Source: Candidatus Saccharimonadales bacterium (GTDB lineage Bacteria > Patescibacteriota > UBA1384 > 2-12-FULL-50-11). Taken from it: 64,000 bases of DNA. Under the pieces are notes generated by a model, which saw nothing but the letters and a program-made list of their open reading frames with translations, made no database searches and was not told the DNA's origin. Where the stretch lies: contig DATIHX010000008.1 of the NCBI GenBank assembly GCA_035480235.1, positions 96,104-160,103 of the forward strand, written 5' to 3'. Below, in pieces: positions 8,252 to 54,799 of the stretch. The position numbers and the translations under genes were made by a program. How positions within the stretch are numbered: position 1 is the stretch's first letter; every line of letters starts with the position of its first letter.

Positions 8252-8275
8252 CTTGATATATTATAATATATCAAG
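8252..8275. repeat. 24-nt perfect palindrome (the core of the 54760-54799 palindrome)
   Basis: CTTGATATATTATAATATATCAAG, 85 nt upstream of the zinc-ribbon gene start. Confidence 0.9.
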
Positions 8276-8321
8276 GCGTTCGAGGGGAAAGAAGATTGTG
8301 TGTGTAAACTGGTAAGAAGCG

Positions 8322-9591: not shown

Positions 9592-11856
9592 TTACTCGGT
9601 TTTGGCGACGGCAGCTTCGGTGGCTTCTTTCGTGAAGTCGCAATTAGAGCACTTGAGGCCGTCTTTTTTCTTTAATAGTAAGTGACCGCAGTCGGGGCAC
9701 TTTTCGGTGGTGGGTTCGTCCCAAAAAGCGGTTTTGCAAGCGGGGTAGTTGTTACAGCCCCAGAAAATTTTGCCGCGTTTGGAACGCTTCTTAACTAAAT
9801 CGCCTTTGGCGCAGTTGGGGCATTTGACGCCGGAGCTAACTTCCACGGATTTGGTGTATTTGCACTTCGGGTAGTTGCTGCAGCCAATAAACGTGCCGAA
9901 ACGACTTTGCTTCACAATTAATTCGCCGCCGTCTTCCGGGCATTTCTCTTTAATCATTTCTTGCAGAATTGGGCTGATGGCTTTTTCTTCGCTGCCGCCG
10001 GCCGTGCCCAAAAACGGCTCAGTGTGTTTGCAATCGGGGAAGCCGCTGCAGGCGTAGAACTTACCGAAACGGCCGAGTTTCAGCACGAGCGGCTTACCGC
10101 ACTTTGGGCAGATTTTATCTGTTTCCTCCACCACGTTTTTCTTTTCCAATGTCCCCTCTTTTTCTTTGAGGAGTAACGCAAACGGCTCGTAGAAATCCCG
10201 CAAAACCGGCACCAGCTGTTTGTCGCCATCGGCGATGTCGTCCAGCTCGTCTTCCATTTTGGCAGTGAAGTCATAGTCGATAATAGCCGGGAAGTTTTCT
10301 ACTAGTAAATCGGTGACCACGCCAGCCACGTCTTCCGGCACAAAGCGGCCGGTTTGCTTAGTCACGTAACCGCGGTCAACGATGGTGCTCATAATTGGCG
10401 CGTAAGTGGACGGCCGGCCGATGCCGCGCTTTTCCAGTTCTTTAACCAGCGTGGCTTCGGAATAACGAGCTGGCGGTTCGGTGAAGTGCTGCTCGGTTTC
10501 CATTTTCTTGACCGTCACCTTCTCGCCGGCGGTCATTTTAGGAAGTTTCACAAAACGTTCTTCCGAGTCTGGGTAAACTTTAAGAAATCCGTCAAAAGAC
10601 AGTTCGCGGCCGCGGGCAATTAAATCAATTTTAGCCGAACTGCCAACCCTGACGATGGTATTTTTAACTTCGGCCGGCGTCATCTGCGAGGCCATCGCCG
10701 CTTGCCAAATTAAGGTGTAAAGGCGGGCGTGGTCGCGCTCTAGGCTTTTGCTGGCCACTGCCGGCAGCAAGGCGAAATCGGTTGGGCGGATGGCTTCGTG
10801 GGCTTCTTGGGCGCCGCGAACTTTTTTGGTGAAAGTATTAGGCACGGCGGGTTGGTAGCGCTCACCGTATTGGCTAACAATCTGGGCGCGGGCTTGGGTT
10901 TTAGCAGTGTTCGATAAATTGTACGAATCGGTTCGCATGTAAGTAATTAGACCTTGGGCTGGGCGGCCGTCGACACTCATACCTTCGTAAAGGTCCTGAG
11001 CAATTTTCATTGTCCGTTTGGCGGAAAATCCGAGAACGCGCGAGGCCATCTGCTGCAAAGTGGAGGTAATGAGCGGCGGCGATGGGCGCAGCGTGGTGTT
11101 AGTTTCACTGATGTCGGCCACATTGAAATCGGCGTTTTTCAGTTGGTTTAAGATTTTGTCGACTTCGGCTTTGGTAGCCAGTTCCAACTTGGCGGTGGAG
11201 CCTTCTTTAACAAGCGTGGCCGGGAATTCGCCAGCGGCCGCTTTCAAGATAGCTTCCAATGTCCAGGATTCTTTGGGCACAAAAGCTTTAATTTCCCGTT
11301 CGCGCTCCACCACTAACCGCACGGCCACGCTTTGGACCCGGCCGGCCGATAAGCCGCGGTAAACTTTTTTCCACAGTAGCGGCGAGAGTTTATAGCCAAC
11401 TAAACGGTCTAGGGCTCGGCGGGCTTGTTGAGCATCAACCAGATTTTGATCGATATCTCTGGGGTTAGCTACCGCCTCTTGAACCGCCTGCTTGGTGATT
11501 TCCGAGAAGCTGACTCGGTGAATTTTGGGATTTGGTTTTTGGGGTTTGGTTTTTTCCAGGCCAAGAGCCTGGATAAGATGCCACGCGATCGCCTCGCCTT
11601 CGCGGTCTGGGTCGGGCGCCAGGTAAAGTTCGTCTGCGTCAGCGATATCTTTCTTTAATTCGGCTAGAACTTTTTTTGCCCGGACGATCGGCTGATAGTC
11701 GATGGCGAAGTCGTGATCCACATCGATGCCGAGTTTACTCTTCGGCAAATCGCGGACGTGGCCGAAAGAGGCTTTGACCGTAAAGTCTTTGCCAAGATAG
11801 CCAGCGATGGTTTTGGCTTTGGCAGGAGATTCGACAATAACAAGTTTTTTAGGCAT
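9592..11856 (-). CDS. topA: DNA topoisomerase I
   Basis: Toprim N-terminus, ITYMRTDS active-site region and multiple C-terminal C4 zinc fingers. Confidence 0.97.
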   Translation of the reverse strand: MPKKLVIVESPAKAKTIAGYLGKDFTVKASFGHVRDLPKSKLGIDVDHDFAIDYQPIVRAKKVLAELKKDIADADELYLAPDPDREGEAIAWHLIQALGLEKTKPQKPNPKIHRVSFSEITKQAVQEAVANPRDIDQNLVDAQQARRALDRLVGYKLSPLLWKKVYRGLSAGRVQSVAVRLVVEREREIKAFVPKESWTLEAILKAAAGEFPATLVKEGSTAKLELATKAEVDKILNQLKNADFNVADISETNTTLRPSPPLITSTLQQMASRVLGFSAKRTMKIAQDLYEGMSVDGRPAQGLITYMRTDSYNLSNTAKTQARAQIVSQYGERYQPAVPNTFTKKVRGAQEAHEAIRPTDFALLPAVASKSLERDHARLYTLIWQAAMASQMTPAEVKNTIVRVGSSAKIDLIARGRELSFDGFLKVYPDSEERFVKLPKMTAGEKVTVKKMETEQHFTEPPARYSEATLVKELEKRGIGRPSTYAPIMSTIVDRGYVTKQTGRFVPEDVAGVVTDLLVENFPAIIDYDFTAKMEDELDDIADGDKQLVPVLRDFYEPFALLLKEKEGTLEKKNVVEETDKICPKCGKPLVLKLGRFGKFYACSGFPDCKHTEPFLGTAGGSEEKAISPILQEMIKEKCPEDGGELIVKQSRFGTFIGCSNYPKCKYTKSVEVSSGVKCPNCAKGDLVKKRSKRGKIFWGCNNYPACKTAFWDEPTTEKCPDCGHLLLKKKDGLKCSNCDFTKEATEAAVAKTE

Positions 11857-11891
11857 GGAGTTTGCTTAGTATAACCTATACTTCTAGTTCT

Positions 11892-12075
11892 CAGCCAGGG
11901 CTGCCGTTCTATTCCAAAGGACAAGGGGCTTTTTGCGAGGCAGCCCCTTATCCTGTGGAGACTCCAATCCCTTCTCGCTTCTCTACGAGGTAAGGAGAAA
12001 ACCTCCGACTGCAAACCGGCAAATGGCACTGTTTGCTCCTCCGGTTTTAGGAACTATTTTATAGGCGACAAAAAG
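11892..12075 (+). ncRNA. structured intergenic repeat family, copy A
   Basis: Shares a conserved core and helices with 16825-17008, 38781-38971 and 51192-51383 (see findings). Confidence 0.6.
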
Positions 12076-12087
12076 AGAGGTAATACC

Positions 12088-12116
12088 TTGACTTTTTGGG
12101 ACGAATCTGCTAGTAT
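12088..12116 (+). promoter_or_regulatory. consensus-like extended -10 promoter
   Basis: TTGACT, 17 nt, (TGC)TAGTAT. Confidence 0.7.
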
Positions 12117-12158
12117 TCACCTGTTCTTTTACAGAACGGATACGGCAGGGAGGGATAC

Positions 12159-12770
12159 ATGAAAAGAATTACACTTGGGCTTCAACCTCGGAAAAGCTCC
12201 GGTGCCGGAGAAGTCCTTCTGGGACTTTTCGGAGGCACCCTATCGTTGCAGCGCATAGTCTTGGAGCGGGCATTTAAAGTGTTCCAGCCCAAGGCGCTTG
12301 ATTTCATCTGGCACATTCGGGAGAGCGAGAACCTCATTGCAGAGCCTCACCAGCTTTGGGTCGACTACCAGGCGTCGTTCGTCGATGCTGATTTCGAAGT
12401 TAGCGATAAGCTAACGTTGCTTGGTCAGTATTTGAAGGCGTTCGACGGACACCTCTTCAACGATAGCGAGGTGTGGGATGACGTGCTCCGCAATATGCCA
12501 GACACGCCCTACTGGAACCCCGAGTGGCCAATGCCAGCGCGCATCAAGGTCGGATGGGAGTATAGCAAGCCTCCGTACGATCTCACGGTTATCTATGGAG
12601 CTGACAGCGATGAGCAGATGGCCCACTTGCTCACACACCACCACCTCGACGACATCCTCAACGGGATGTTGCCAATCATTGAGGAATTTCTCAACAGAAA
12701 GGTACAAGAAATACTCAAGATGGATCCTTCGTGGTTCGATGAGGAATCAGAAGTCCTAGTTGAGGATTGA
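12159..12770 (+). CDS. hypothetical protein
   Basis: 203-aa ORF with GGGAGGG upstream, its own promoter and its own terminator. I recognise no motif. Confidence 0.7.
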   Translation: MKRITLGLQPRKSSGAGEVLLGLFGGTLSLQRIVLERAFKVFQPKALDFIWHIRESENLIAEPHQLWVDYQASFVDADFEVSDKLTLLGQYLKAFDGHLFNDSEVWDDVLRNMPDTPYWNPEWPMPARIKVGWEYSKPPYDLTVIYGADSDEQMAHLLTHHHLDDILNGMLPIIEEFLNRKVQEILKMDPSWFDEESEVLVED

Positions 12771-12779
12771 CCACAATTC

Positions 12780-12816
12780 AGCCGGACGAGACAAAATCTC
12801 GCCCGGCTATTTTTTT
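12780..12816. terminator. bidirectional terminator
   Basis: AGCCGGACGAG...CTCGCCCGGCT followed by T7. Confidence 0.75.
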
Positions 12817-16183: not shown

Positions 16184-16372
16184 TTAACGGTTAATTGCTA
16201 AAAGGAGTAATTTTTGGAGCAAATAGTCGACGCCGGCGAAAATCAGGGTGGCGACGGCCAAAGTGATAACCACCATCAGACTGTGGCGAATGACCGTATC
16301 GCGGTTTGGCCAGATAGTTTTCTTGCCTTCGTCAACGACGCCGTTAATGAAATTGATGGGAGCGAATTTCAT
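16184..16372 (-). CDS. secE: preprotein translocase subunit SecE
   Basis: 62 aa with a single TM helix, in the conserved position upstream of nusG. Confidence 0.85.
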   Translation of the reverse strand: MKFAPINFINGVVDEGKKTIWPNRDTVIRHSLMVVITLAVATLIFAGVDYLLQKLLLLAINR

Positions 16373-16737
16373 TACTTAGCGGCTTTCTTCGGTGCAGCTT
16401 TCTTGGCGGCTGGGGCTTTGGCTTCTGCTTTCTCGACTGGCTTTTCCGCAACTTTTCCGCCAATCGAAATCACTTCCAGCGCGCTCAGGTTCTGGCGATG
16501 GCCGTAGTGGCGAATGTAGCGAACTTTGTTTTTGAACTTCAAGCCGTGGATTTTTTCACCGCGCAGTTCTTCGGTAACTTTAAGGGTGACCGGAGTTTGG
16601 TCGAGTAAACTTTTGACAGTAATGGTCTCGCCGGCCTTCGTCTCCAGGCGGTTAACCTGGATTTTACTGCCCGCCAAAACGAGGTGCTGTTTGCCCCCGA
16701 GCTCGACGACGGCCCAATTGGTTTCGGTAGATGTCAT
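16372..16737 (-). CDS. rplU: 50S ribosomal protein L21 with a Lys/Ala-rich tail
   Basis: WAVVELGGKQHLV...HYGHRQ signature. Confidence 0.9.
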   Translation of the reverse strand: MTSTETNWAVVELGGKQHLVLAGSKIQVNRLETKAGETITVKSLLDQTPVTLKVTEELRGEKIHGLKFKNKVRYIRHYGHRQNLSALEVISIGGKVAEKPVEKAEAKAPAAKKAAPKKAAK

Positions 16738-16824: not shown

Positions 16825-17008
16825 CAGCCAAGGCTACAGTTTTCATTGGAAAGGACAGGGGGCCTATTTGCGAGGCAGCCCCCTATCCTCTCCACTCCAA
16901 CCCCTGCACGCTTCTCACAGAGGTGTGGTGAAAACCTCCGGCTGCAAACCGGCAACTGGCACTGTTTGCTCCTACGGTTTTAGGAACTATTTAATAGCTA
17001 CAAAAAAG
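16825..17008 (+). ncRNA. structured intergenic repeat family, copy B
   Basis: Same architecture as copy A. Confidence 0.6.
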
Positions 17009-17038: not shown

Positions 17039-17416
17039 CTATCTGGAGATAGAGGGCTTTTTTCGGTCAAACCACTCCACGAGGTTATGTGCCTGGAAGT
17101 ATACGAACCACCCCCAGACGAAATAAGCGGCCAGCAGCATTACCCAATCCAAGAGAAAGATGAGGAAGATTGAGAGAGAAAAGTGCTGGTTGTAGAGCTG
17201 CAGCTTGAGAAAGGCTGCTGCCGTCGCCGAGACGAATCCAGTAGGGTATTGGTACAAGAAAAGTGTATCATTGACCACAACCTTAACTGAAGCAAAGATT
17301 GTGAGGCCGGTCAGGATCAAAAAGCCTAAGACCGCCAGAATAATTAAAAAGAGCGTCATAACTTGCCTCCAAGCAAATGTTGAGAAAAGCTTAGCAAAAA
17401 TTCTCGAGAAAGTCAA
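17039..17416 (-). CDS. hypothetical membrane protein
   Basis: 125 aa with multiple hydrophobic helices. It overlaps the rodA stop. Confidence 0.6.
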   Translation of the reverse strand: MTFSRIFAKLFSTFAWRQVMTLFLIILAVLGFLILTGLTIFASVKVVVNDTLFLYQYPTGFVSATAAAFLKLQLYNQHFSLSIFLIFLLDWVMLLAAYFVWGWFVYFQAHNLVEWFDRKKPSISR

Positions 17417-18984: not shown

Positions 18985-20010
18985 CTACGGAGTGACGTTA
19001 CCGGTTCCCCCATAGACATTAAAGTCGTAGATACTAAGTAAAGTGCCGGATTTGCGGTCGACGGTGGCCAACAGCGTCCGTTTGGTGGCGCCGGCGTAAC
19101 CGGTGGCGGTGATTTTGCTGACGGTGGAATCGAAGTTAACGTTGGCGCTGGTGGTGCCGCTGGAGCTGGTGACGGTGGAAAAGGTGGCGCCGACGCTGCC
19201 CAAATTGTAACAACTGGAGCCGACGCCGCTGGTGCCGAGTGGCCGAATGCGCAAAGTGCTCGCCACGCTGCCGCCGCCGGTACCGCCTCGTATCAGCAAA
19301 TTGGTTCCCTGGGCTGCCGAGTCGTAAGTGGGCTGGCTGCCGATTTGGCTAACGACCACTTGTGGCTGGAATTGAGTGCCGCTACCGTTTTGGTTGATTT
19401 GTTGAATCGTCACCGAGCAGCCGCTGGGGTTGCCGGTCCAGCTGAATTGATAGCGAAGATAATAGTCGTTGGTTGAATCGGGAAAACCGGTTAATTCCAA
19501 GCTGTCGTCTTGGGCGATCGGGCTGGCTAATGTCAGAGCGGCGTTGGTGGTTTTGTAGTCGACTTTCAAGTCGTAGTATTGGTGAACTGGGTTGTAGCCG
19601 CTGGTCGAGGTGATGGTAGTGTTATCCTGAACGTTGCCAACGGCACTGCCGGCGGTTAGGTCGTAGCGCTCAGCAGTACTTAAGACAGCCCCGTTGGTGT
19701 CGCGGCGAATGGTGTCGACGTTGCGGCCGAACCTAAAGCGAACCAAGCCGTCTTCGATGCCGGCTTTGGCGGCGTAATAAGCAGCGACGTTATCTTCGTC
19801 GGCCGACGACTGGCCAAACTGCACCAGCGCCAACCGCTGAACGCCGAGGGTTACCGTGACGATGCCGGCCACCACCAGCATAACGAAAATTAGACTACTC
19901 GCCGAGGATCGGCGAGCAGAATTACTGAATCTTCGAATTACTGAATTACTGATTTTTTCCGGATTTAGTAATTTAGTCATTGAGTTATTACGTAATTCTT
20001 TCTTAGTCAT
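18985..20010 (-). CDS. pilin-like/minor pilin protein with an AT-rich-encoded leader
   Basis: The start is taken at the ATG overlapping the upstream stop (ATGA). N-terminus MTKKELRNNSMTKLLNPEKISNSVIRRFSNS followed by a hydrophobic helix. Confidence 0.6.
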   Translation of the reverse strand: MTKKELRNNSMTKLLNPEKISNSVIRRFSNSARRSSASSLIFVMLVVAGIVTVTLGVQRLALVQFGQSSADEDNVAAYYAAKAGIEDGLVRFRFGRNVDTIRRDTNGAVLSTAERYDLTAGSAVGNVQDNTTITSTSGYNPVHQYYDLKVDYKTTNAALTLASPIAQDDSLELTGFPDSTNDYYLRYQFSWTGNPSGCSVTIQQINQNGSGTQFQPQVVVSQIGSQPTYDSAAQGTNLLIRGGTGGGSVASTLRIRPLGTSGVGSSCYNLGSVGATFSTVTSSSGTTSANVNFDSTVSKITATGYAGATKRTLLATVDRKSGTLLSIYDFNVYGGTGNVTP

Positions 20011-20816
20011 ATTGCTCCCGGCACCACCGTGGTATCTAAAGTGTAACAGGTGCCGGCGCCGAGGGTGGCGCAAGTTTGGGCAGCATCGCCGGCCGGTTTC
20101 AGATCGAAGTGGATTTTGACGTACGGCGAAGCCGTGGCGCTTTTGGCAGCGGCGATGTCGAGACCGCTAAAGACCGGCGTCAGGCCGCCAAGGCCGTCGG
20201 CGACGTAGGCGCTGCTCAACAAGTCGGCCGGGGTGGCTGGTGGGCTGGCCGCCGCACACGGCGCGGTTTGGCTGGCGACCACGGGGTTGCCGCCGCCAAG
20301 TGGGGTGCAAACCGACAAGCCGCGCAACTCGTAGACGTAAACGCTTGGCCGGTTATTGAGGGTTTGGGCGGCGTAGAGGCGCCAAACCAAATCCCCTGCC
20401 CCGGTGGCGCCTGGGTACTTCAACAGCAGTTCGGCTTCGTCACAGCCAAAAGCGTTACCCAACCGAACGCCCGTAAAGATGCTAGCCGGCGAGCCGCAGC
20501 TGCTTTTGAGCGAAGCTGGTTGGTCGACGGTATCCACGTAGTGCAAGTCGTTGGTGAGTTGGTCAGTCACCGACCGAGCGGCTTGAACTTGGGCCCGGAC
20601 GACGTTACTTTGGCTGCTAGAGCTGACCGAACGGGCAAAAGCGGCAATGGCCAGAACGATGAGGCCGGAAAAGATCAGCACCGAGACCAGGAGTTCGATG
20701 AGGGTGTAGGCTCGGCGAGAAGCTCTCGCCGAATGACTAAATCTCTGAATTACTGAATTACTGAGTCTATTTAGTAATTTAGTAATTTCGTAATTTCGTA
20801 ATTTTTTTCTGATCAT
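20007..20816 (-). CDS. type IV pilin-like protein (pseudopilin)
   Basis: 36-aa leader, then YTLIELLVSVLIF. ATGA overlap with the upstream gene. Confidence 0.75.
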   Translation of the reverse strand: MIRKKLRNYEITKLLNRLSNSVIQRFSHSARASRRAYTLIELLVSVLIFSGLIVLAIAAFARSVSSSSQSNVVRAQVQAARSVTDQLTNDLHYVDTVDQPASLKSSCGSPASIFTGVRLGNAFGCDEAELLLKYPGATGAGDLVWRLYAAQTLNNRPSVYVYELRGLSVCTPLGGGNPVVASQTAPCAAASPPATPADLLSSAYVADGLGGLTPVFSGLDIAAAKSATASPYVKIHFDLKPAGDAAQTCATLGAGTCYTLDTTVVPGAI

Positions 20817-21640
20817 TGCCCGCTCCCCCCGGTGCCAAAGTTGGCGCCACTGAATCCAGCCGTTTGCTCAAAGCCTTTCCAGTTGGTGAGTAATGTTGCC
20901 ACGTCGGCGACGGTGAAGCCGGTTTTATTGCTTGTAACAACCACCGAGCGAACTTTGACGGCGTTGCCGGCCGGGATGATGGTGGGGCTGTTGGTAGCAA
21001 CGCTGGAGAGTTCGTCGCGATTAAGACTGGCTTGAGTGTTGGTGCAGTAGTTGTTAGCGCTGTCGCAAGGGGCGGTGGTGTGCGAGCGGTCGCCGTCGCT
21101 GGCGATCGCTGAGCCGCCGGCGCTAGTGTTACAGCTATCGGTGGTGGCGTCCCGCCGGGTAACAGCCCCGACCGACTCCAGGCAAATCAGGCGAAAAGCC
21201 GTCAGCGACTGGCTGGTTTTGGCTTCGCTATTGGTGTTGTTAAGGGTAGTAAAATCGATGGTATTGCCCAGACCAGTGGCTTTAGTGAGCGCCCAATTGT
21301 TACCGTTTTGGCTTAACGTGTACCAGCCGTAATTAGCCGGGTCGGTGGCTTCGTTGAGCCAAATTGAGTTATTGCCGTCGTTGTTGCCCGCCAGTAAATT
21401 ATCGTCGCGATGAGCGGCGGTGAGCTCCAACCCCTCGCTGGCCCAACGGTTGAGAATGGTGACATCGGCGTTAACGGCTGTCCCCCGGATAATTGAGTTG
21501 TTGAGGCCAACAATCGCCCCGGAAACGATAAATAAGATACCCCCGGCAATTAGTACTTCCAACAACGTGAAACCCTTCTTAGAATTACTAAATAACTTAA
21601 TTTTAGTAATTTTATTATTTAGTAATTTTCTTATTGCCAT
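20813..21640 (-). CDS. type IV pilin-like protein
   Basis: MAIRKLLNNKITKIKLFSNSKKG then FTLLEVLIAGGILF. Confidence 0.8.
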   Translation of the reverse strand: MAIRKLLNNKITKIKLFSNSKKGFTLLEVLIAGGILFIVSGAIVGLNNSIIRGTAVNADVTILNRWASEGLELTAAHRDDNLLAGNNDGNNSIWLNEATDPANYGWYTLSQNGNNWALTKATGLGNTIDFTTLNNTNSEAKTSQSLTAFRLICLESVGAVTRRDATTDSCNTSAGGSAIASDGDRSHTTAPCDSANNYCTNTQASLNRDELSSVATNSPTIIPAGNAVKVRSVVVTSNKTGFTVADVATLLTNWKGFEQTAGFSGANFGTGGSGQ

Positions 21641-21651
21641 TTAGTCATTAC

Positions 21652-25064: not shown

Positions 25065-25129
25065 TAGAAATCTCCGATTTCTAGAATTACTAAATTACTG
25101 AATTTTTCCGGATTTAGTAATTTAATCAT
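25064..25129 (-). other. 21-codon AT-rich mini-ORF whose stop overlaps the pilC start (TAGTG)
   Basis: MIKLLNPEKFSNLVILEIGDF*. The nucleotide module is shared with the pilin leaders. Confidence 0.4.
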
Positions 25130-25197
25130 TTTGCGAAGTGATAACAGAGCGAATGTAAATGGATAATACATTTAGTAATTTAGTAATTATTTCCTCG

Positions 25198-26265
25198 TTA
25201 GTAGACCATCATCTTGAAGGCTTTCGGGTCGATCGCCCAAGCCAGCGCCGTGTCGATGGTAATCTCGCCGCGACTGACTAATTCGGCTAAGACTTTATCG
25301 AGGGCGATCATCCCTTCAGAGGCCGAGGTCTGAATAATGTTGGGTAGTTGGTGAGTCTTGCCTTCGCGGATGGTGTTACGAACGGCTGAGTTGGCCACCA
25401 TAATTTCGGTGGCCAGCACCCGCCCGCCCTGAACTTTCGGCAACAAACGCTGCGAGACCACGCCCAAAAGGACGTTAGCGAGTTGCATCCGCACTTGCAT
25501 TTGTTGATGCGGCGGGAAAACGTCGATAATTCGGTCGGCGGTTTGGGCGGCCGAGTTGGTGTGTAAAGTAGTGAACACCAGGTGGCCGGTTTCAGCCAGG
25601 GTTAAGGCGGCTTCGATGGTTTCCAAATCGCGCATCTCGCCCACTAAAACCACGTTCGGGTCCTCGCGCAAGGCGCTGCGCAAAGCCCGGCTGAAGGAAT
25701 TGGTATCAACGCCAACTTCTCGCTGAACGACGATCGACTTTTGATGCTCAAAAACGTACTCGATCGGGTCTTCGATGGTAATAATGTGTTCGGCCCGGGT
25801 TTGGTTGATATGCTCCACCAGCGCCGCCAAGGTGGTGGATTTGCCGTGACCGGTTGGGCCGGTAATGATCACAAAACCCTGGCTGGGCTCGGCAAAGCGC
25901 TCGAGAATTGGCGGCACGCCGAGTTGTTCCATCGTTTTAATGGCCACTGGAATCAGCCGCAGCGCCGCCCCGATGTTGCCCTTTTGGTAAAAAGCGTTGG
26001 TTCGGAAGCGCATCTTTTGGTAACCGAATGAAAAATCCAGCTCCCGCCGGGTAGTCAGCCGCTCTGTTTGCTCCGGCGTCATAATGCTGGAGAGTAGCCG
26101 TTCGGCCGTTTCGGCGGTCAGGACGCCTTGGTCGGTCAGCGCCAACAGCCGGCCGTCAACTCGCAAAATCGGTGGCGTCCCCACCGTGATATGTAAATCC
26201 GAAGCGTTTTTCTCGACCGCTAAGTCGAGTAAACTTTTCATCTGGGCAGTCAAAGCTTCAGCCAT
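25198..26265 (-). CDS. pilT: twitching motility ATPase PilT
   Basis: GPTGHGKST Walker A, 355 aa, PilT family. Confidence 0.95.
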   Translation of the reverse strand: MAEALTAQMKSLLDLAVEKNASDLHITVGTPPILRVDGRLLALTDQGVLTAETAERLLSSIMTPEQTERLTTRRELDFSFGYQKMRFRTNAFYQKGNIGAALRLIPVAIKTMEQLGVPPILERFAEPSQGFVIITGPTGHGKSTTLAALVEHINQTRAEHIITIEDPIEYVFEHQKSIVVQREVGVDTNSFSRALRSALREDPNVVLVGEMRDLETIEAALTLAETGHLVFTTLHTNSAAQTADRIIDVFPPHQQMQVRMQLANVLLGVVSQRLLPKVQGGRVLATEIMVANSAVRNTIREGKTHQLPNIIQTSASEGMIALDKVLAELVSRGEITIDTALAWAIDPKAFKMMVY

Positions 26266-34977: not shown

Positions 34978-35051
34978 TGGCAGGGACGGGGAGAATCGAA
35001 CTCCCAGTTCGGGTTTTGGAGACCCGTGGTTTACCATTAACCGACGTCCCT
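34978..35051 (-). tRNA. tRNA-Trp (CCA)
   Basis: Folded by hand: acceptor AGGGACG/CGTCCCT, anticodon loop CTCCAAA, T-arm GGGAG-TTCGATT-CTCCC, CCA encoded. Confidence 0.92.
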
Positions 35052-38428: not shown

Positions 38429-38457
38429 TTGACGGCTAGGGCGGCGTTTGGTATCAT
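38429..38457 (+). promoter_or_regulatory. promoter giving a leaderless or near-leaderless transcript
   Basis: TTGACG, 17 nt, TATCAT. The ATG lies 8 nt after the -10. Confidence 0.6.
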
Positions 38458-38465
38458 ATACCTAC

Positions 38466-38750
38466 ATGCCTTTTGAAGACAAAACCCTCAAGTGCAAAGA
38501 GTGCGGCCAAGATTTTATATGGACGGCCGGCGAGCAGCAATTTTTTGCCGACAAAGGTTTTACTAATAAGCCGACCCGCTGCAAAGACTGCCGCAAGATG
38601 AACCGCCAAAAAGTGGAAGCGGAATACTACAAAATTACCTGTTCTGATTGCGGCCAGATCGGCGAGGCGATGTTTAAGCCGAAAGATCCAGATGCCAAGA
38701 TTTATTGCAAAAACTGCTTCGAAACCCGCTTTTTGACGAAGGCAGCCTAG
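38466..38750 (+). CDS. double zinc-ribbon protein
   Basis: CKECG...CKDC and CSDCG...CKNC. Confidence 0.75.
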   Translation: MPFEDKTLKCKECGQDFIWTAGEQQFFADKGFTNKPTRCKDCRKMNRQKVEAEYYKITCSDCGQIGEAMFKPKDPDAKIYCKNCFETRFLTKAA

Positions 38751-38780
38751 GCTGCAGAACTATTTTTTATTTACTGTCTT

Positions 38781-38971
38781 ATGTGGCTAGCGCCACTGAC
38801 TATTATTTGAGGGTGAGGGGGCTAATTTGCTAAGCCGCCCCCTACACCCTCAAACTCCCTACCCCCGCAAGCTTCCTTTGCGGGGCAGTGGTGCAAGCTG
38901 ATGGCTGTCAACCGGCAACTGGCACTGTTTCCTCCATCAGCTTGAAGAACTATTTTATCGGCGGCAAAAAA
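38781..38971 (+). ncRNA. structured intergenic repeat family, copy C
   Basis: See findings. Confidence 0.6.
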
Positions 38972-38984
38972 TTGGGGAAAAGCA

Positions 38985-39013
38985 TTGACAATTAGTTCGA
39001 AATATGCTATAGT
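38985..39013 (+). promoter_or_regulatory. consensus extended -10 promoter
   Basis: TTGACA, 17 nt, (TGC)TATAGT. Confidence 0.72.
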
Positions 39014-39037
39014 TTCTCGGTGTGACGCAACACAAAT

Positions 39038-39295
39038 ATGATTATGCGCACACCACTAAACGGCCTTCGGCCGCCAACAGCATTGCCGCAAGGCATTACT
39101 ATCGTCAACGTTCAGGTACTTTGGGCGACGGGAATACCTGTCTTTGTAAGCCTACCAGCTGGTGTTGAACTAGCTAGTCAGGACTTCATTGGTGGTGTTA
39201 TCCGTTTACCTAAAGGCTCTTACTACTGGAGCTGGCAACTTACCATCTGGGTAGAGTGTCTAACCGAAGTAGTCAGGAGCGGCACTTGGATATGA
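39038..39295 (+). CDS. hypothetical small protein
   Basis: 85-aa ORF lying between a consensus promoter and a terminator. Confidence 0.6.
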   Translation: MIMRTPLNGLRPPTALPQGITIVNVQVLWATGIPVFVSLPAGVELASQDFIGGVIRLPKGSYYWSWQLTIWVECLTEVVRSGTWI

Positions 39296-39299
39296 ATTC

Positions 39300-39328
39300 T
39301 TTGCTCGCCTTCCCAGGCGAGCTTTTTC
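39300..39328. terminator. bidirectional terminator
   Basis: GCTCGCC-TTCCCAG-GCGAGC followed by T5. Confidence 0.75.
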
Positions 39329-44061: not shown

Positions 44062-45666
44062 CTAAGTGCTTTTTTCTTTGACCATCTTGCTCGGCGCAGA
44101 AATCCCCATCAACTCCAGCGTTCGCTTGACGGTAATACTCGCTGCTTTCAAAATTGCTAAGCGGGATTGAGCGATTTCCGCTGGTTCGCCCAGCACCCGG
44201 AGCTTCTCGTAAAACGTGTGAACGTCGGTGGCCAAAGCTGTAGCGAAATGGGCCAGTTTGTGAACTTCCAAACTTCCGCTGAGTTCGGCCACCAAATCCG
44301 GAAATTGAATAATCCGCAGCAATAACTGCCGCTCGGCTGGCTGCGACAAAACGATTTTTTCCGGCAACTCAAACTCGTTTTCCTTGGAAAATTCCCGAAA
44401 GATCGAGGAAATCCGGGCGTAGGCGTATTGAATATAAAACACCGGATTTTGGCTGGAACTCGACTTGGCGATATCAAAATTAAAATCGAGATGGCTATCA
44501 ACCGAGCGTGACAGGAAAAAGAACCGGGCGACGTCAGCACCGACTTCATCCAACACTTCATCCAACGCCACGTAATTGCCGGCTCGTTTACTCATCTTCA
44601 CTTCTTTGCCTTTTTCAAACAGCCGAACAATTTGGGTGATCACCCAATCGAGCTGGCCGCCCCAGGTGTAATGATCACGGAGCACCCCTTCAATAACCAT
44701 GTTCATTTGACGAGTGTACTGGAAGTGGTCAGCGCCGCCGACCCAAATCAACCGGTGATAACCACGTTGGATTTTGTAGCTATGATAAGCGATGTCGTTC
44801 GCAAAGTACGTCGGCAAGCCGTCGGAACGGACCAAAACCCGGTCTTCCGAGTCGCCAAAACGAGTGGTCGAGAGCCAAGTGGCGCCGTCAGCGTCGTAGG
44901 TGAGGCCGCGCAGCTTCAATAAATCCATCGTTTTTTTATAAACGCCGGTTTGATGCAACGATTTTTCCGAGAAAAACTGATGGAAATTAATCCCTAACTG
45001 ACGCAAAACCGGCTTAATCATCGTTTCCATGATAATCACCACCGCCTCTTCGCCGGCGTCGCGATCGGTTTTAGCCTTAATTCGGCTCCGGAGCTCGTCG
45101 ACGTACGGACCGCTATATTGTTTGGCTGGATCGTCGCCGTGCAAAACCGAGTGGCCCAGGTGATCGACTTGGGTGCCGGTATCGTTCAAGTAGAACTCCC
45201 GCATCACCGTACAGCCGTAGAGCTCGAGGACCCGGGCGATCGCTTCGCCCACAAAGGCGCCGCGACCGTTAGCCAGCGTTAATGGCCCGGTTGGGTTAGC
45301 CGAAACATATTCCAACAAAACCCGGGTTTCTTTGCCGGCATCGCTTTTGCCGAAATTGTCGGGCGATTTCAATATTGCCGCAACAGTAGTGGCCAAATAA
45401 TCGTCGGTGACGGTGAAATTAATAAAACCGGGCGTGGCGACGTTAACCGAGCGAAAACTCTGATGAGCCGTTAACTCGGCGACAATTTTTTGAGCCAGGG
45501 CCACCGGGGCCTGGCCGGCCGGCTCGGCGCCGACCAAAGCGACGTTAGTGGAAAAATCGCCGAAAATTGGTTTTTTCGCCGGCTCGATAGCAAAAACCGG
45601 TGGCTCGGCTTGAACCACTTTTTTATAAGCCTGACGAATATGTTCGCGCAGTTCGCCTAAAACCAT
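44062..45666 (-). CDS. argS: arginyl-tRNA synthetase
   Basis: SANPTGPL (HIGH-equivalent), MSKRAG and a DALR anticodon-binding C-terminus. Confidence 0.95.
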   Translation of the reverse strand: MVLGELREHIRQAYKKVVQAEPPVFAIEPAKKPIFGDFSTNVALVGAEPAGQAPVALAQKIVAELTAHQSFRSVNVATPGFINFTVTDDYLATTVAAILKSPDNFGKSDAGKETRVLLEYVSANPTGPLTLANGRGAFVGEAIARVLELYGCTVMREFYLNDTGTQVDHLGHSVLHGDDPAKQYSGPYVDELRSRIKAKTDRDAGEEAVVIIMETMIKPVLRQLGINFHQFFSEKSLHQTGVYKKTMDLLKLRGLTYDADGATWLSTTRFGDSEDRVLVRSDGLPTYFANDIAYHSYKIQRGYHRLIWVGGADHFQYTRQMNMVIEGVLRDHYTWGGQLDWVITQIVRLFEKGKEVKMSKRAGNYVALDEVLDEVGADVARFFFLSRSVDSHLDFNFDIAKSSSSQNPVFYIQYAYARISSIFREFSKENEFELPEKIVLSQPAERQLLLRIIQFPDLVAELSGSLEVHKLAHFATALATDVHTFYEKLRVLGEPAEIAQSRLAILKAASITVKRTLELMGISAPSKMVKEKST

Positions 45667-45667
45667 A

Positions 45668-45733
45668 TCAATAAAGAATTATTAAATTACTGAATTTTTG
45701 AATTACAAAATTAGAATTGAGTAATTTAGTCAT
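45668..45733 (-). other. 21-codon AT-rich mini-ORF ending 1 nt before the argS ATG
   Basis: MTKLLNSNFVIQKFSNLIILY*. The module is shared with the pilin leaders. Confidence 0.4.
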
Positions 45734-45822
45734 TGAGTTATTTAGTAATTTGGCCAGGCGGAATTGATCGTACCGACTAAACAACAACCCCAGTATATTC
45801 TTCACTTAGCCAATCAGCAACA

Positions 45823-50886: not shown

Positions 50887-51159
50887 ATGCGCATGCTTAA
50901 CTTCGTCCTAATCTTGATTGTTTGCCAGCTTGCTTTGGCTATTTACTCCTTCCTGGAGGGAAAATGGGGCAAGAAAAACTCCTCCAAGCTACTCCTTGCT
51001 GGAGTAACGACTATGACTACCTATCTTTCGTTTCTGTTGCTAGCACCACTGCTGAAGGATAATCTGTCACCCTATCTTGTGGGAAGCAGCATCTCTTTGT
51101 TTGTCTGTTTGCTCAGCTATTACTGGGGCTTAGTCAGCTCTCGTAACAATGCCGCCTAG
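50887..51159 (+). CDS. small membrane protein
   Basis: 90 aa with three hydrophobic helices. Confidence 0.55.
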   Translation: MRMLNFVLILIVCQLALAIYSFLEGKWGKKNSSKLLLAGVTTMTTYLSFLLLAPLLKDNLSPYLVGSSISLFVCLLSYYWGLVSSRNNAA

Positions 51160-51187: not shown

Positions 51188-51191
51188 GATT

Positions 51192-51383
51192 CTTTTTGCC
51201 GTCAATACAATAGTTCCTAAAACCGGAGGAGGAAACAGTGCCAGTTGCCGGTTGACAGCCGGAGGTTTTCTCCTTGTTCCCGACCAGGGAAGCGTGCCGG
51301 GGTACGGGGGTTTGGGGGCCTAGGGGGCGGCGTCGCAATAAGCCCCCTGGCCCCCAAATAATAGTAAGTGGCGCTAGCCACAT
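51192..51383 (-). ncRNA. structured intergenic repeat family, copy D
   Basis: Inverted orientation. It begins 10 nt after the radA stop. Confidence 0.6.
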
Positions 51384-51393
51384 AAAATGGTGA

Positions 51394-52707
51394 TTACTTA
51401 ATCGTAAATAATTTCGGCAGATCGCGGATCGAGTTGAATTTTGTCGCGACGGTGTAACCGAGCCGTTTAGCTTCTTTGGCCCGGCGCTCGGCGCCAAAGG
51501 CGGCTCGGACTTCGCCGAGCAAACCGACCTCACCAAAAATCACCAACTTCGGCGGTAAGGTTTTTTTATTTAAGCCGGAGACGCAGGCGGCACAGACGGC
51601 CACATCAACGCCGGGATCTTTCAGCGTAAAGCCGCCAACCACATTCACATAAACATCGTAGGAGCTAAAAGCGGCGCCAAGACGATTTTCCAAAACCGCC
51701 AGCAGTAGCGTTAAACGATTAGCATCGATCCCCTGGGCTGTTCGTTTCGGGTAACCGAAACTGGTTTTCGTCACCAGCGCCTGAATCTCTACCACAAACG
51801 CTCGGCTTCCTTCCATCGTCATCGTCAGCGCTCGGCCGGGCACGTCTTCCGTTAGAAGCCCGGCAAAAATCCGGCCTGGGTCGGCCACTACTTCAAAGCC
51901 GGTTTCGCCGAGCTGCCAAATACCGACTTCTTCGGTCGAACCAAACCGGTTTTTATCGGGCCGAAGCACGCGCAGGCCGGTCCGGCGTTCGCCTTCCAGA
52001 TACAAAACCACATCGACTAAATGCTCCAAAACTCGTGGCCCGGCCATCACCCCTTCTTTGGTCACGTGGCCGACCAACAAAATTGCGACGCCGGTCAGTT
52101 TGGCGAGTTGCTGGAAGCGCCAGCCGTTATCGCGCACTTGGGTGAGCGACCCGGGTGCGCCTGGTAAGGCGTCGTCGTAAATAGTTTGGATAGAATCGAT
52201 CACCACCAGTGCCGGTTTTTCGTTTTTAATGGCCGCGATAATTTTATTGATGTTGCGTTCAGGGCTAAGGCGGAGTTTGGTTTTATTCAGACCCAGGCGG
52301 GTTGAGCGCAAGTGAATTTGCTCCAACGATTCTTCAGCCGAAAAATAGAGCGAATTTGGGACGCTGGCGGCCAGTTGTAAAAGCAGCGTACTTTTACCGA
52401 CGCCCGGGTTGCCAGCGAGTAACATAATCGAGCCCGGCACAATGCCGGGGTCGTCCCCGCCTAACACTCGGTCGAATTCGGCCAGCCCGCTTTGAATGCG
52501 TAAGTGTTTGGCAACGGTAATTTGGCTAATTTCCGTCAGCTCAGCTGGGTCACTATTAACGGCGACGCCGCCCCGGCCAGTGACAGTCGGTTCGATCGCC
52601 TCTTCCACGATCGTATTCCACTCACCACAGACCGGGCATTTGCCGGCCCACGAACCAAAATGCGACCCGCAGCTTTCGCAAACAAAACTTTGTTTCGGCT
52701 TGGCCAT
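51394..52707 (-). CDS. radA: DNA repair protein RadA/Sms
   Basis: C4 zinc finger, GNPGVGKST, KNRFG and a Lon-like C-terminal domain. Confidence 0.95.
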   Translation of the reverse strand: MAKPKQSFVCESCGSHFGSWAGKCPVCGEWNTIVEEAIEPTVTGRGGVAVNSDPAELTEISQITVAKHLRIQSGLAEFDRVLGGDDPGIVPGSIMLLAGNPGVGKSTLLLQLAASVPNSLYFSAEESLEQIHLRSTRLGLNKTKLRLSPERNINKIIAAIKNEKPALVVIDSIQTIYDDALPGAPGSLTQVRDNGWRFQQLAKLTGVAILLVGHVTKEGVMAGPRVLEHLVDVVLYLEGERRTGLRVLRPDKNRFGSTEEVGIWQLGETGFEVVADPGRIFAGLLTEDVPGRALTMTMEGSRAFVVEIQALVTKTSFGYPKRTAQGIDANRLTLLLAVLENRLGAAFSSYDVYVNVVGGFTLKDPGVDVAVCAACVSGLNKKTLPPKLVIFGEVGLLGEVRAAFGAERRAKEAKRLGYTVATKFNSIRDLPKLFTIK

Positions 52708-52732
52708 TGGTTTCAAGCTGCCAGGAAATTAA

Positions 52733-54759: not shown

Positions 54760-54799
54760 CACGTACCCTTGATATATTATAATATATCAAGGGTACGTG
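54760..54799. repeat. 40-nt perfect palindrome upstream of recJ
   Basis: CACGTACCCTTGATATATTATAATATATCAAGGGTACGTG. The inner 24 nt are identical to 8252-8275. Confidence 0.92.

Follow-up and report, generated by a model that had tools for sequence, protein, structure and literature searches.

The stretch of DNA analysed here, 64,000 nucleotides (nt) of contig DATIHX010000008.1 from the metagenome-assembled genome of a Candidatus Saccharimonadales bacterium (hereafter the window), carries between the radA gene and the terminator of a small convergent gene a non-coding sequence, copy D, that recurs at three other places in the window (copies A, B and C). What is this repeat, on which strand does it act, and do its variants follow the genes around them, as a preliminary description of the window had proposed? 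The family is real, undescribed, structured, non-coding and under constraint, and its core is almost unchanged between species, so that the repeat is probably functional. The explanation that we favour, and to which we give about an even chance, is that this lineage-specific family of four-hairpin elements most likely represents a small structured RNA read from the complement of the strand used in the preliminary description (the latter is called here the described strand).

The repeat, its four hairpins and its strand

Inverted matches to positions 51191-51275 lie at 11992-12076 (89%), 16927-17008 (84%) and 38903-38970 (87%). The nhmmer program returned the four window copies with E-values of 1e-58 to 2e-61, and a covariance model found exactly four copies in the window, with filters on or off. 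Three are on the plus strand and one on the minus strand, leaving copy D as the sole minus-strand member, just as the preliminary description had it. With strands given as in that description, the copies are:

11890..12077, plus: repeat copy A, between topA (divergent) and open reading frame (ORF) ORF12159
16822..17009, plus: repeat copy B, between the ORF17039 terminator and the rplU promoter
38781..38973, plus: repeat copy C, between the zf_Tbcl stop and the ORF39038 promoter
51192..51383, minus (probable functional strand, plus): repeat copy D, whole element; covariance-model match at 51197-51383, 193.8 bits

The repeat is about 185-195 nt long, non-coding and intergenic, in either orientation. 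Spaced by 4.9-22 kilobases (kb), at a density of four per 64 kb, the copies occupy several of the rare long intergenic gaps; loci of close relatives that carry the family have about one copy per 10-20 kb. The copies have no reading frame in common: frames differ from one to another, and stops fall within copy D. Six-frame peptides of the repeat had no match in the protein database. Small ORFs inside the repeat (MPVAG* after GGAGGAGG, a 54-amino acid (aa) frame on the described strand, and a 121-aa frame over copy A) were discarded, as neither frame nor length is conserved.

On the described strand, the order of elements is H1, a T-rich spacer, H2, a C-rich linker, H3, H4 and a tail, GGAACTATTTTAT-GGCGRCAAAAAG. 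In copy D they map as follows:

51368..51381: H1 hairpin GTGGC-TAGC-GCCAC, 12 nt from the radA stop, terminator-like on the minus strand
51314..51355: H2, a 14-base-pair (bp) GC-rich hairpin with the conserved loop TTGCGARG (described strand)
51279..51302: H3, a short, less regular hairpin
51219..51269: H4, the conserved core, with closing stem AAAACCGGAGG...CCGGAGGTTTT enclosing CAGTGCCAGTTGCCGG
51192..51218, plus: conserved end segment CTTTTTGCCGTCAATACAATAGTTCCT, with a TAnAAT box (TACAAT) at 51206-51211

H1 is a 5-bp hairpin of at least three sequence types (GTGGC/GCCAC, CAGCC/GGCTG and GCAGC/GCTGC), and the outer stem of H2 also varies (GGGGGCC/GGCCCCC, GAGGGTG/CACCCTC and GGGGACC/GGTCCCC). 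H4 has an 11-position closing stem around the invariant CCGGCAACTGGCACTGTTT. In most copies this stem reads AAAACC-TCC-GG/CC-TCC-GGTTTT; a fully paired variant, CAAGCTGATGG/CCATCAGCTTG, occurs only in copy C and in a copy from a relative (L016; sequences from other genomes bear L numbers) and covaries.

A hand-drawn structure was placed on MAFFT-only alignments of the seven full copies and compared with shuffles. Paired cells amount to 81% on the described strand and 85% on the complement, against 75-78% in the shuffles. The difference is sharper for pairs changed on both sides, which number 15-16 as opposed to 4.7-6.9 in shuffled alignments, none of 500 shuffles being as high. In a slid control, with the 3′ partners shifted by 1-3 columns, only 1-5 double-change pairs were counted. 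Sliding preserves the relatedness of the sequences, and the slid counts nonetheless stay well below those observed. A model-fitted alignment of 12 sequences agrees with the MAFFT-only result. In H2, 6-7 pairs carry double changes and 88-91% of cells are paired. These findings show that H1, H2 and the H4 stem retain pairing through compensatory changes, most plainly in the variants of H1, of the H2 outer stem and of the H4 closing stem given above. For H3, 75% of cells are paired when copy D is read on the plus strand and 61.5% when it is read on the minus strand. A G-quadruplex was also considered for the G-runs of the complementary strand and rejected: they fit the motif in C and D and not in A and B.

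Several measures distinguish the two strands. The mean folding z-score against dinucleotide shuffles is -3.6 for the complement and -2.6 for the described strand, and the complement is never clearly worse. Taken module by module, energy favours the complement in 28 of 31 comparisons (H1 9:1, H2 7:0, H3 7:1, H4 5:1). G·U pairs in the folded modules number 27 on the complement and 12 on the described strand, where A·C mismatches stand in place of the G·U pairs, for example in H2 and H3 of copy B. This kind of asymmetry usually marks the strand from which a structured RNA is transcribed. It suggests that the functional strand is opposite to the described one. Copy D would then be read on the plus strand and A, B and C on the minus strand, so that A and B would point the same way as topA and rplU. 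The end of D nearest to radA, previously regarded as its 5′ end, would be its 3′ end, lying tail-to-tail with radA. Copy orientation was also set against GC skew as a sign of replication direction and proved uninformative.

Conservation and context in related genomes

RadA homologues comprise a small clade at 86-89% identity, followed by a gap down to about 70%; matches near 61% identity are named Berkelbacteria or Patescibacteria. The genome whose RadA is 89% identical, GCA_034680565.1, has copies at three of the four window sites, in the same place and the same orientation:

L006 11326-11511: copy D′, 11 nt past the radA stop
L013 8484-8677: copy B′, between a small ORF and rplU
L014 10311-10505: copy C′, after the zf_Tbcl stop

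The site of copy A is empty in this genome, the DprA-TopA gap being 24 nt, and ORF12159 is missing too. Elsewhere in the clade, in L007/L008 (RadA 87% identical) the radA stop is followed after 6 nt by a copy that the contig end truncates and that has the A/B-type hairpin GCAGCCGAGGCTGC and the A/B-type linker GGACTCC. In L009 a diverged A/B-like copy lies between mraY and murD, 7 nt after the stop of the co-oriented mraY, where the window has none. L016 has a copy at the rplU site, also cut by a contig end. In L009 and L010 radA abuts a penicillin-binding protein gene, with neither repeat nor small ORF, and in L017 the zf_Tbcl site holds a different promoter-to-terminator unit instead of the repeat. 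More distant relatives at 68-69% (L011 and L012) gave no copy within 21 kb each, by nhmmer or by the covariance model. Short-read contigs end inside the element in L001, L002, L007, L008 and L016, which implies that the family is multi-copy in relatives.

A 21-nt core, AACCGGCAANTGGCACTGTTT, was scanned in GTDB representative genomes, JGI metagenomes and IMG/VR and found no real copy. Each collection gave one coding-sequence match, two of which encode a primase-like motif, TG[KN]WHCF. The repeat core happens to read as this zinc-finger primase-like peptide (TG(K/N)WHCF; L003 311-336 and L005 10912-10935), a pitfall for pattern searches. The GTDB representative set evidently lacks the relatives that carry the element. 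A joined query of four lineage-specific neighbour proteins matched only one distant M50 protease. The family appears to be limited to a genus-level clade of Saccharimonadales, within the Patescibacteria or Candidate Phyla Radiation (CPR), and to be undescribed.

The window and GCA_034680565.1 provide a measure of constraint. Their radA genes are 89% identical in protein, 76% in nucleotide sequence and 37% at four-fold sites; with so few four-fold sites identical, synonymous positions are saturated. Over the same distance H4 is 94% identical between D and D′ and 96% between B and B′, and it is 90-98% identical among all copies with the common closing stem, paralogs and orthologs together. Copy C, with its variant stem, departs from this pattern (69-78% to other copies, 73% to its ortholog C′). 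A core of 50-80 nt is more conserved than the neighbouring protein genes. The near-invariance of H4 where four-fold sites are saturated indicates purifying selection on its primary sequence. Alternatively, the copies might be continuously homogenised from a constrained source.

The remainder of the repeat behaves differently. In the variable half, paralogs within the genome are 75% (A-B) and 81% (C-D) identical, as compared to 53% (B-B′), 67% (C-C′) and 72% (D-D′) for orthologs. B′, at the rplU site of GCA_034680565.1, joins an A/B-like H1 to C/D-like H2 and H3. Paralogs that are closer than orthologs, together with modules that reassort, indicate that copies exchange sequence within a genome.

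These data bear on the proposal that two subfamilies occupy different genomic contexts. Its factual basis is sound. The ATGTGGCTAGCGCCAC end of copy D, common to C, lies 10 nt from the radA stop (gap 51384-51393); this sequence occurs exactly twice in the window, at 38781-38796 on the plus strand and 51368-51383 on the minus strand, against a chance expectation of 0.02. The other end of D abuts the terminator of the convergent ORF 50887-51159, which ends at the base before the repeat begins (51192). C and D are directly 3′ of co-oriented genes, 30 nt after zf_Tbcl and 10 nt after radA, and A and B diverge from the starts of topA (35 nt) and rplU (86 nt, a gap that includes the rplU promoter, TTGACG-17-TACAAT). 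The neighbours involved are:

9592-11856, minus: topA, Pfam-confirmed
16372-16737, minus: rplU, Pfam-confirmed
38448-38750, plus: zf_Tbcl zinc-ribbon gene, Pfam-confirmed
50887..51159, plus: small membrane-protein ORF, 90 aa, 49% protein identity to an ORF of L006
51164..51191, plus: intrinsic terminator of ORF 50887-51159, GCCGCGCGCCAGCGCGGC then TTTTTTGATT, from the terminator scan
51394..52707, minus: radA, Pfam-confirmed neighbour of copy D (ORF 51394-52716, stop codon 51394-51396, start probably at 52707)

The two-and-two split of hairpin type also holds within the window. The step from there to differing contexts does not survive the comparison with other genomes, where A/B-type copies lie directly 3′ of co-oriented radA (L007/L008) and mraY (L009), and where the subtype features are mosaic (B′ with its mixed H1 and H2/H3, L016 with the H4 variant of C). 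Moreover, with two plus two copies, two binary labels would match perfectly by chance one time in three. Subfamilies tied to context would have pointed to functional specialisation; the comparison between genomes speaks against such a tie. The "subfamilies" look like the outcome of within-genome homogenisation rather than adaptation to context.

Explanations for the element

In the explanation that we favour, the element would owe its retention to a role as a structured single-stranded molecule, a small RNA being the likeliest kind. The RNA would be read from the complement; for copy D this would be the plus strand, starting from the T-run after the terminator of ORF 50887-51159, and the transcript would end tail-to-tail with radA, 10 nt from its stop. 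H4 would be the sequence-specific functional module, contacting a protein or a nucleic acid, and H1-H3 a structural scaffold. The RNA might act in trans, or as an RNA element in cis, forming a transcript-end or insulator structure between transcription units. Patescibacteria have tiny, streamlined genomes, and to our knowledge descriptions of non-coding RNAs or repeat families peculiar to one of their lineages are few; full-text searches returned none. Survival at the same sites past synonymous saturation makes the element a good candidate for a functional RNA. The analysis also yields a covariance model usable on whole genomes and a clear strand prediction for metatranscriptomes, and the repeat accounts for the breaks in short-read assemblies at these places.

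A number of observations weigh against this explanation. Seven full and four partial copies from about five genomes were available, several of them related by descent; with copies so few and related, the covariation counts overstate the number of independent events. The asymmetry between strands is no more than moderate and would also arise from a single DNA strand that folds. A TAnAAT box near the plus-strand 5′ end is kept in A, C, D, D′, B′ and C′ (as TAAAAT, TACAAT or TATAAT) despite insertions and deletions nearby, but the promoter scan found no -35 partner for it and no convincing sigma-70-type promoter. Nor did the terminator scan of the four copies find an intrinsic terminator (U-tract) belonging to the repeat on the favoured strand. 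Near-identity of H4 among paralogs could in part result from gene conversion and not selection. Finally, the gain and loss of copies between relatives also fits a mobile element.

This last point leads to the main rival, that the family is a selfish, non-autonomous interspersed repeat, comparable to BOX, ERIC, bcr1 or Correia elements or to the palindrome-associated transposable elements (PATEs) derived from insertion sequences (IS) of the IS200/IS605 type. Such a repeat would spread or recombine among intergenic sites, its hairpins being needed for mobilisation or merely tolerated. We regard this as rather unlikely, yet the most serious of the competing explanations. It would account for a multi-copy intergenic sequence in both orientations, for sites that are empty in some genomes (radA in L009 and L010, DprA/TopA in GCA_034680565.1, zf_Tbcl in L017), for the extra copy at mraY/murD in L009, for the reassorted modules and homogenised paralogs, and for assemblies that break at the element. 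Against it, comparison of the first 30 nt with the reverse complement of the last 30 nt revealed no terminal inverted repeats in any of the seven full copies (local score 4-6, shuffle p 0.36-1.0). There are no target-site duplications, the 15-nt flanks of every copy sharing only 3-5 matching bases, and no conserved flanking target or target-adjacent motif (TAM), as flanks differ between copies at both ends. The window and 150 kb of syntenic loci (including L006, L013 and L014) gave neither transposase nor integrase, and no tnpA, tnpB or iscB; a fragment of a serine recombinase, at a tRNA island, is the one ORF there that resembles a recombinase. Density is low, at four copies in 64 kb. Furthermore, three of the four sites are orthologous in spite of saturated synonymous positions, with H4 at 94-96% in two of three ortholog pairs; a selfish insertion would be expected to decay.

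A second alternative takes the repeat for folded single-stranded DNA or a protein-bound recombination site, serving as landing pad for small gene cassettes in the manner of attC or of attachment (att) sites at tRNA genes. In the window, every copy has a small lineage-specific ORF unit on its 3′ side as described, and the units of ORF12159 and ORF39038 each have their own promoter and terminator. Units vary between genomes where the repeat stays: three different ones stand beside the rplU-site copy, and ORF39038 is absent in L014. At radA, the repeat and the 90-aa ORF are jointly present (window and L006) or jointly absent (L009, L010 and L012). The strand asymmetry would also suit folded single-stranded DNA. 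Nevertheless, variable small-ORF slots free of the repeat are equally common (L11/DprA, TopA/RecR, the tRNA island), on which account we hold the idea to be improbable. In addition, the four-helix build and scattered single copies are unlike attC arrays, no integrase is nearby, and cargo orientation is mixed (two co-directional, two convergent). A bolder version, and in our view an equally improbable one, is that the family represents a new CPR class of structured RNA or folded single-stranded DNA site, with H4 bound by a dedicated protein, whose position marks or mediates the exchange of small cassettes (promoter, ORF and terminator) between conserved housekeeping genes. If true, genomes otherwise believed to be without machinery of this sort would have a landing pad akin to those of integrons or to tRNA att sites.

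Another possibility is that H1 and the T-rich tail of D are a plain radA terminator, the remainder being chance sequence or a decaying duplication. The terminator scan did flag GTGGCTAGCGCCAC-TTACTATTAT as terminator-like on the radA strand (five pairs, with TTACTATTAT as the tail), albeit weakly, and in C, C′, D′ and L008, too, a co-oriented stop codon precedes H1 by a few bases. However, A and B carry H1 where no gene ends, H1 always precedes the same H2-H4 series, relatives without the element have no terminator at all after radA, and the element is far too conserved for decay. This makes the proposal very improbable. H1 of copy D may double as the radA terminator, yet it belongs to the repeat, given its presence in A and B away from any gene end.

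Least credible of all is a regulatory site in double-stranded DNA, for instance a sigma-54-type promoter or other operator: TGGCAC-TGT-TTGC does occur in the invariant core of A, B, L006 and L013, resembling TGGCAC...TTGC, but its GG-GC spacing is two bases shorter than the established sigma-54 consensus, C, D and C′ have TTTCC in place of TTTGC, copies are not upstream of one common gene class, and a single-stranded fold is what the compensatory changes and the asymmetry between strands indicate.

Some further features of the window were recorded beside the copies. ORF12159 (203 aa; unit 12088-12806) and ORF39038 (85 aa; unit 38985-39328) each have a near-consensus promoter and their own terminator; neither has a family match, and the sister genome GCA_034680565.1 lacks them both. 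Three unrelated units, in as many genomes, fill the slot that separates RodA from the repeat at the rplU site:

window 17039-17416: 125-aa membrane ORF
L013 8224-8445: 73-aa soluble ORF
L016 11117-11235: tiny promoter-terminator unit

At the site of copy C, L017 1700-2060 comprises a promoter (TTGATC-17-TACAAT), a GC-rich stretch of about 300 nt that looks like a transcript, and a strong terminator. This unit may be another RNA gene; Rfam gave no match to it. In the window itself, at 38737-38771, the zf_Tbcl stop codon falls in the loop of a hairpin, GCAGCCTAGGCTGC, that resembles an A/B-type H1 and is followed by AGAACTATTTTTTAT, a copy of the repeat tail motif. Exact GAACTATTT is found in the window solely in the tails of A, B and C and at this site, and the sister genome has AAACTATTTTAT at the same place (L014 10288-10300). 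The hairpin and tail motif may be the remnant of a second repeat copy. A similarity between C and D upstream of H1, reaching into the 3′ end of radA, is AT-rich, about 59% identical and probably due to chance.

Other repeats and a variable region lie farther off. Arrays of 8-nt units (AATTACTG, then the inverse ATTTAGTA) occupy short gaps of the type IV pilus/pilin gene region and could be putative regulator binding-site arrays; a similar array of TTAGGGTT/TTAGAATT follows radA in a relative (L011 11455-11485). The window positions are:

19916-20010: 8-nt unit array
20728-20816: 8-nt unit array
21580-21648: 8-nt unit array
25065-25201: 8-nt unit array
45665-45771: 8-nt unit array

CTTGATATATTATAATATATCAAGG, a perfect palindrome of 25 nt, is present at two places separated by 46 kb (8252-8276 and 54767-54791), and the 68% relative L011 has CCGTATATATTATAATATATACGG downstream of radA (11360-11385). 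The segment 30000-37100 is low in GC (0.46-0.48), and contains GNAT, methyltransferase, SET and AAA genes; the genes at this place in GCA_034680565.1 are different. Within it, the C-terminal fragment of a large serine recombinase (PF13408, 34261-35040) runs into a tRNA gene (34981-35051) beside four more tRNA genes. The segment looks like a decayed genomic island.

Comparison with known element classes

Rfam 15 gave no match at the gathering threshold over the window, and on either strand of copies B, C and D it yielded nothing beyond noise, from miRNA and snoRNA models with E >= 0.01; we take this library to include the HEARO, omega-RNA and IS605-orfB models. Plasmid and phage collections had no match to the repeat, and full-text literature searches returned no description of it.

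Miniature inverted-repeat transposable elements (MITEs), such as Correia/NEMIS and RUP, are likewise short, non-coding, multi-copy and present or absent between relatives. Unlike them, our element has neither inverted ends nor duplications, and a parent IS was absent from both the window and the syntenic loci; a classical MITE was rejected on the first two grounds. BOX of Streptococcus pneumoniae, enterobacterial ERIC/IRU and bcr1 of Bacillus cereus are not known to be related to the repeat in sequence. They too are 100-200 nt long, non-coding, intergenic in both orientations, mosaic in their modules and restricted to a narrow clade, and they share with the present family a strong predicted secondary structure with compensatory changes. 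The family departs from them in its much lower density, in the orthology of three of its four sites, in a core under apparent purifying selection, in lacking a flanking duplication of the TTTAT type and in its host, a CPR bacterium with a very small genome.

IS200/IS605-derived PATEs and the omega-RNAs of TnpB/IscB come close in other respects: no inverted ends or duplications, a hairpin at or near each end, a multi-helix RNA-like body of about 150-200 nt and an asymmetry between strands. The flanking target or TAM, the tnpA, tnpB or iscB gene and the Rfam match are what the present element lacks by comparison. Integron attC sites are also structured, strand-asymmetric and found beside small variable gene cassettes; they differ in being one imperfect hairpin of 57-141 nt, in arrays beside an integrase, whereas the repeat has four helices over 185-195 nt and is scattered in single copies with no adjacent integrase. 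A type I toxin-antitoxin arrangement was considered and rejected, as A and C adjoin co-directional non-membrane ORFs with promoters of their own, and B and D, on the favoured strand, are co-directional with the small ORF and not antisense to it.

Multi-copy families of small RNAs, such as Qrr, LhrC and csRNA, differ from the repeat, a putative RNA, in that it has no recognisable promoter/terminator pair and its copies sit tighter against adjoining terminators and stop codons than sRNA genes typically do. The likeness to these families lies in the general plan: several paralogous, structured intergenic units of about 100-200 nt, each combining a conserved module with variable scaffold hairpins, and with orthologs in sister species.

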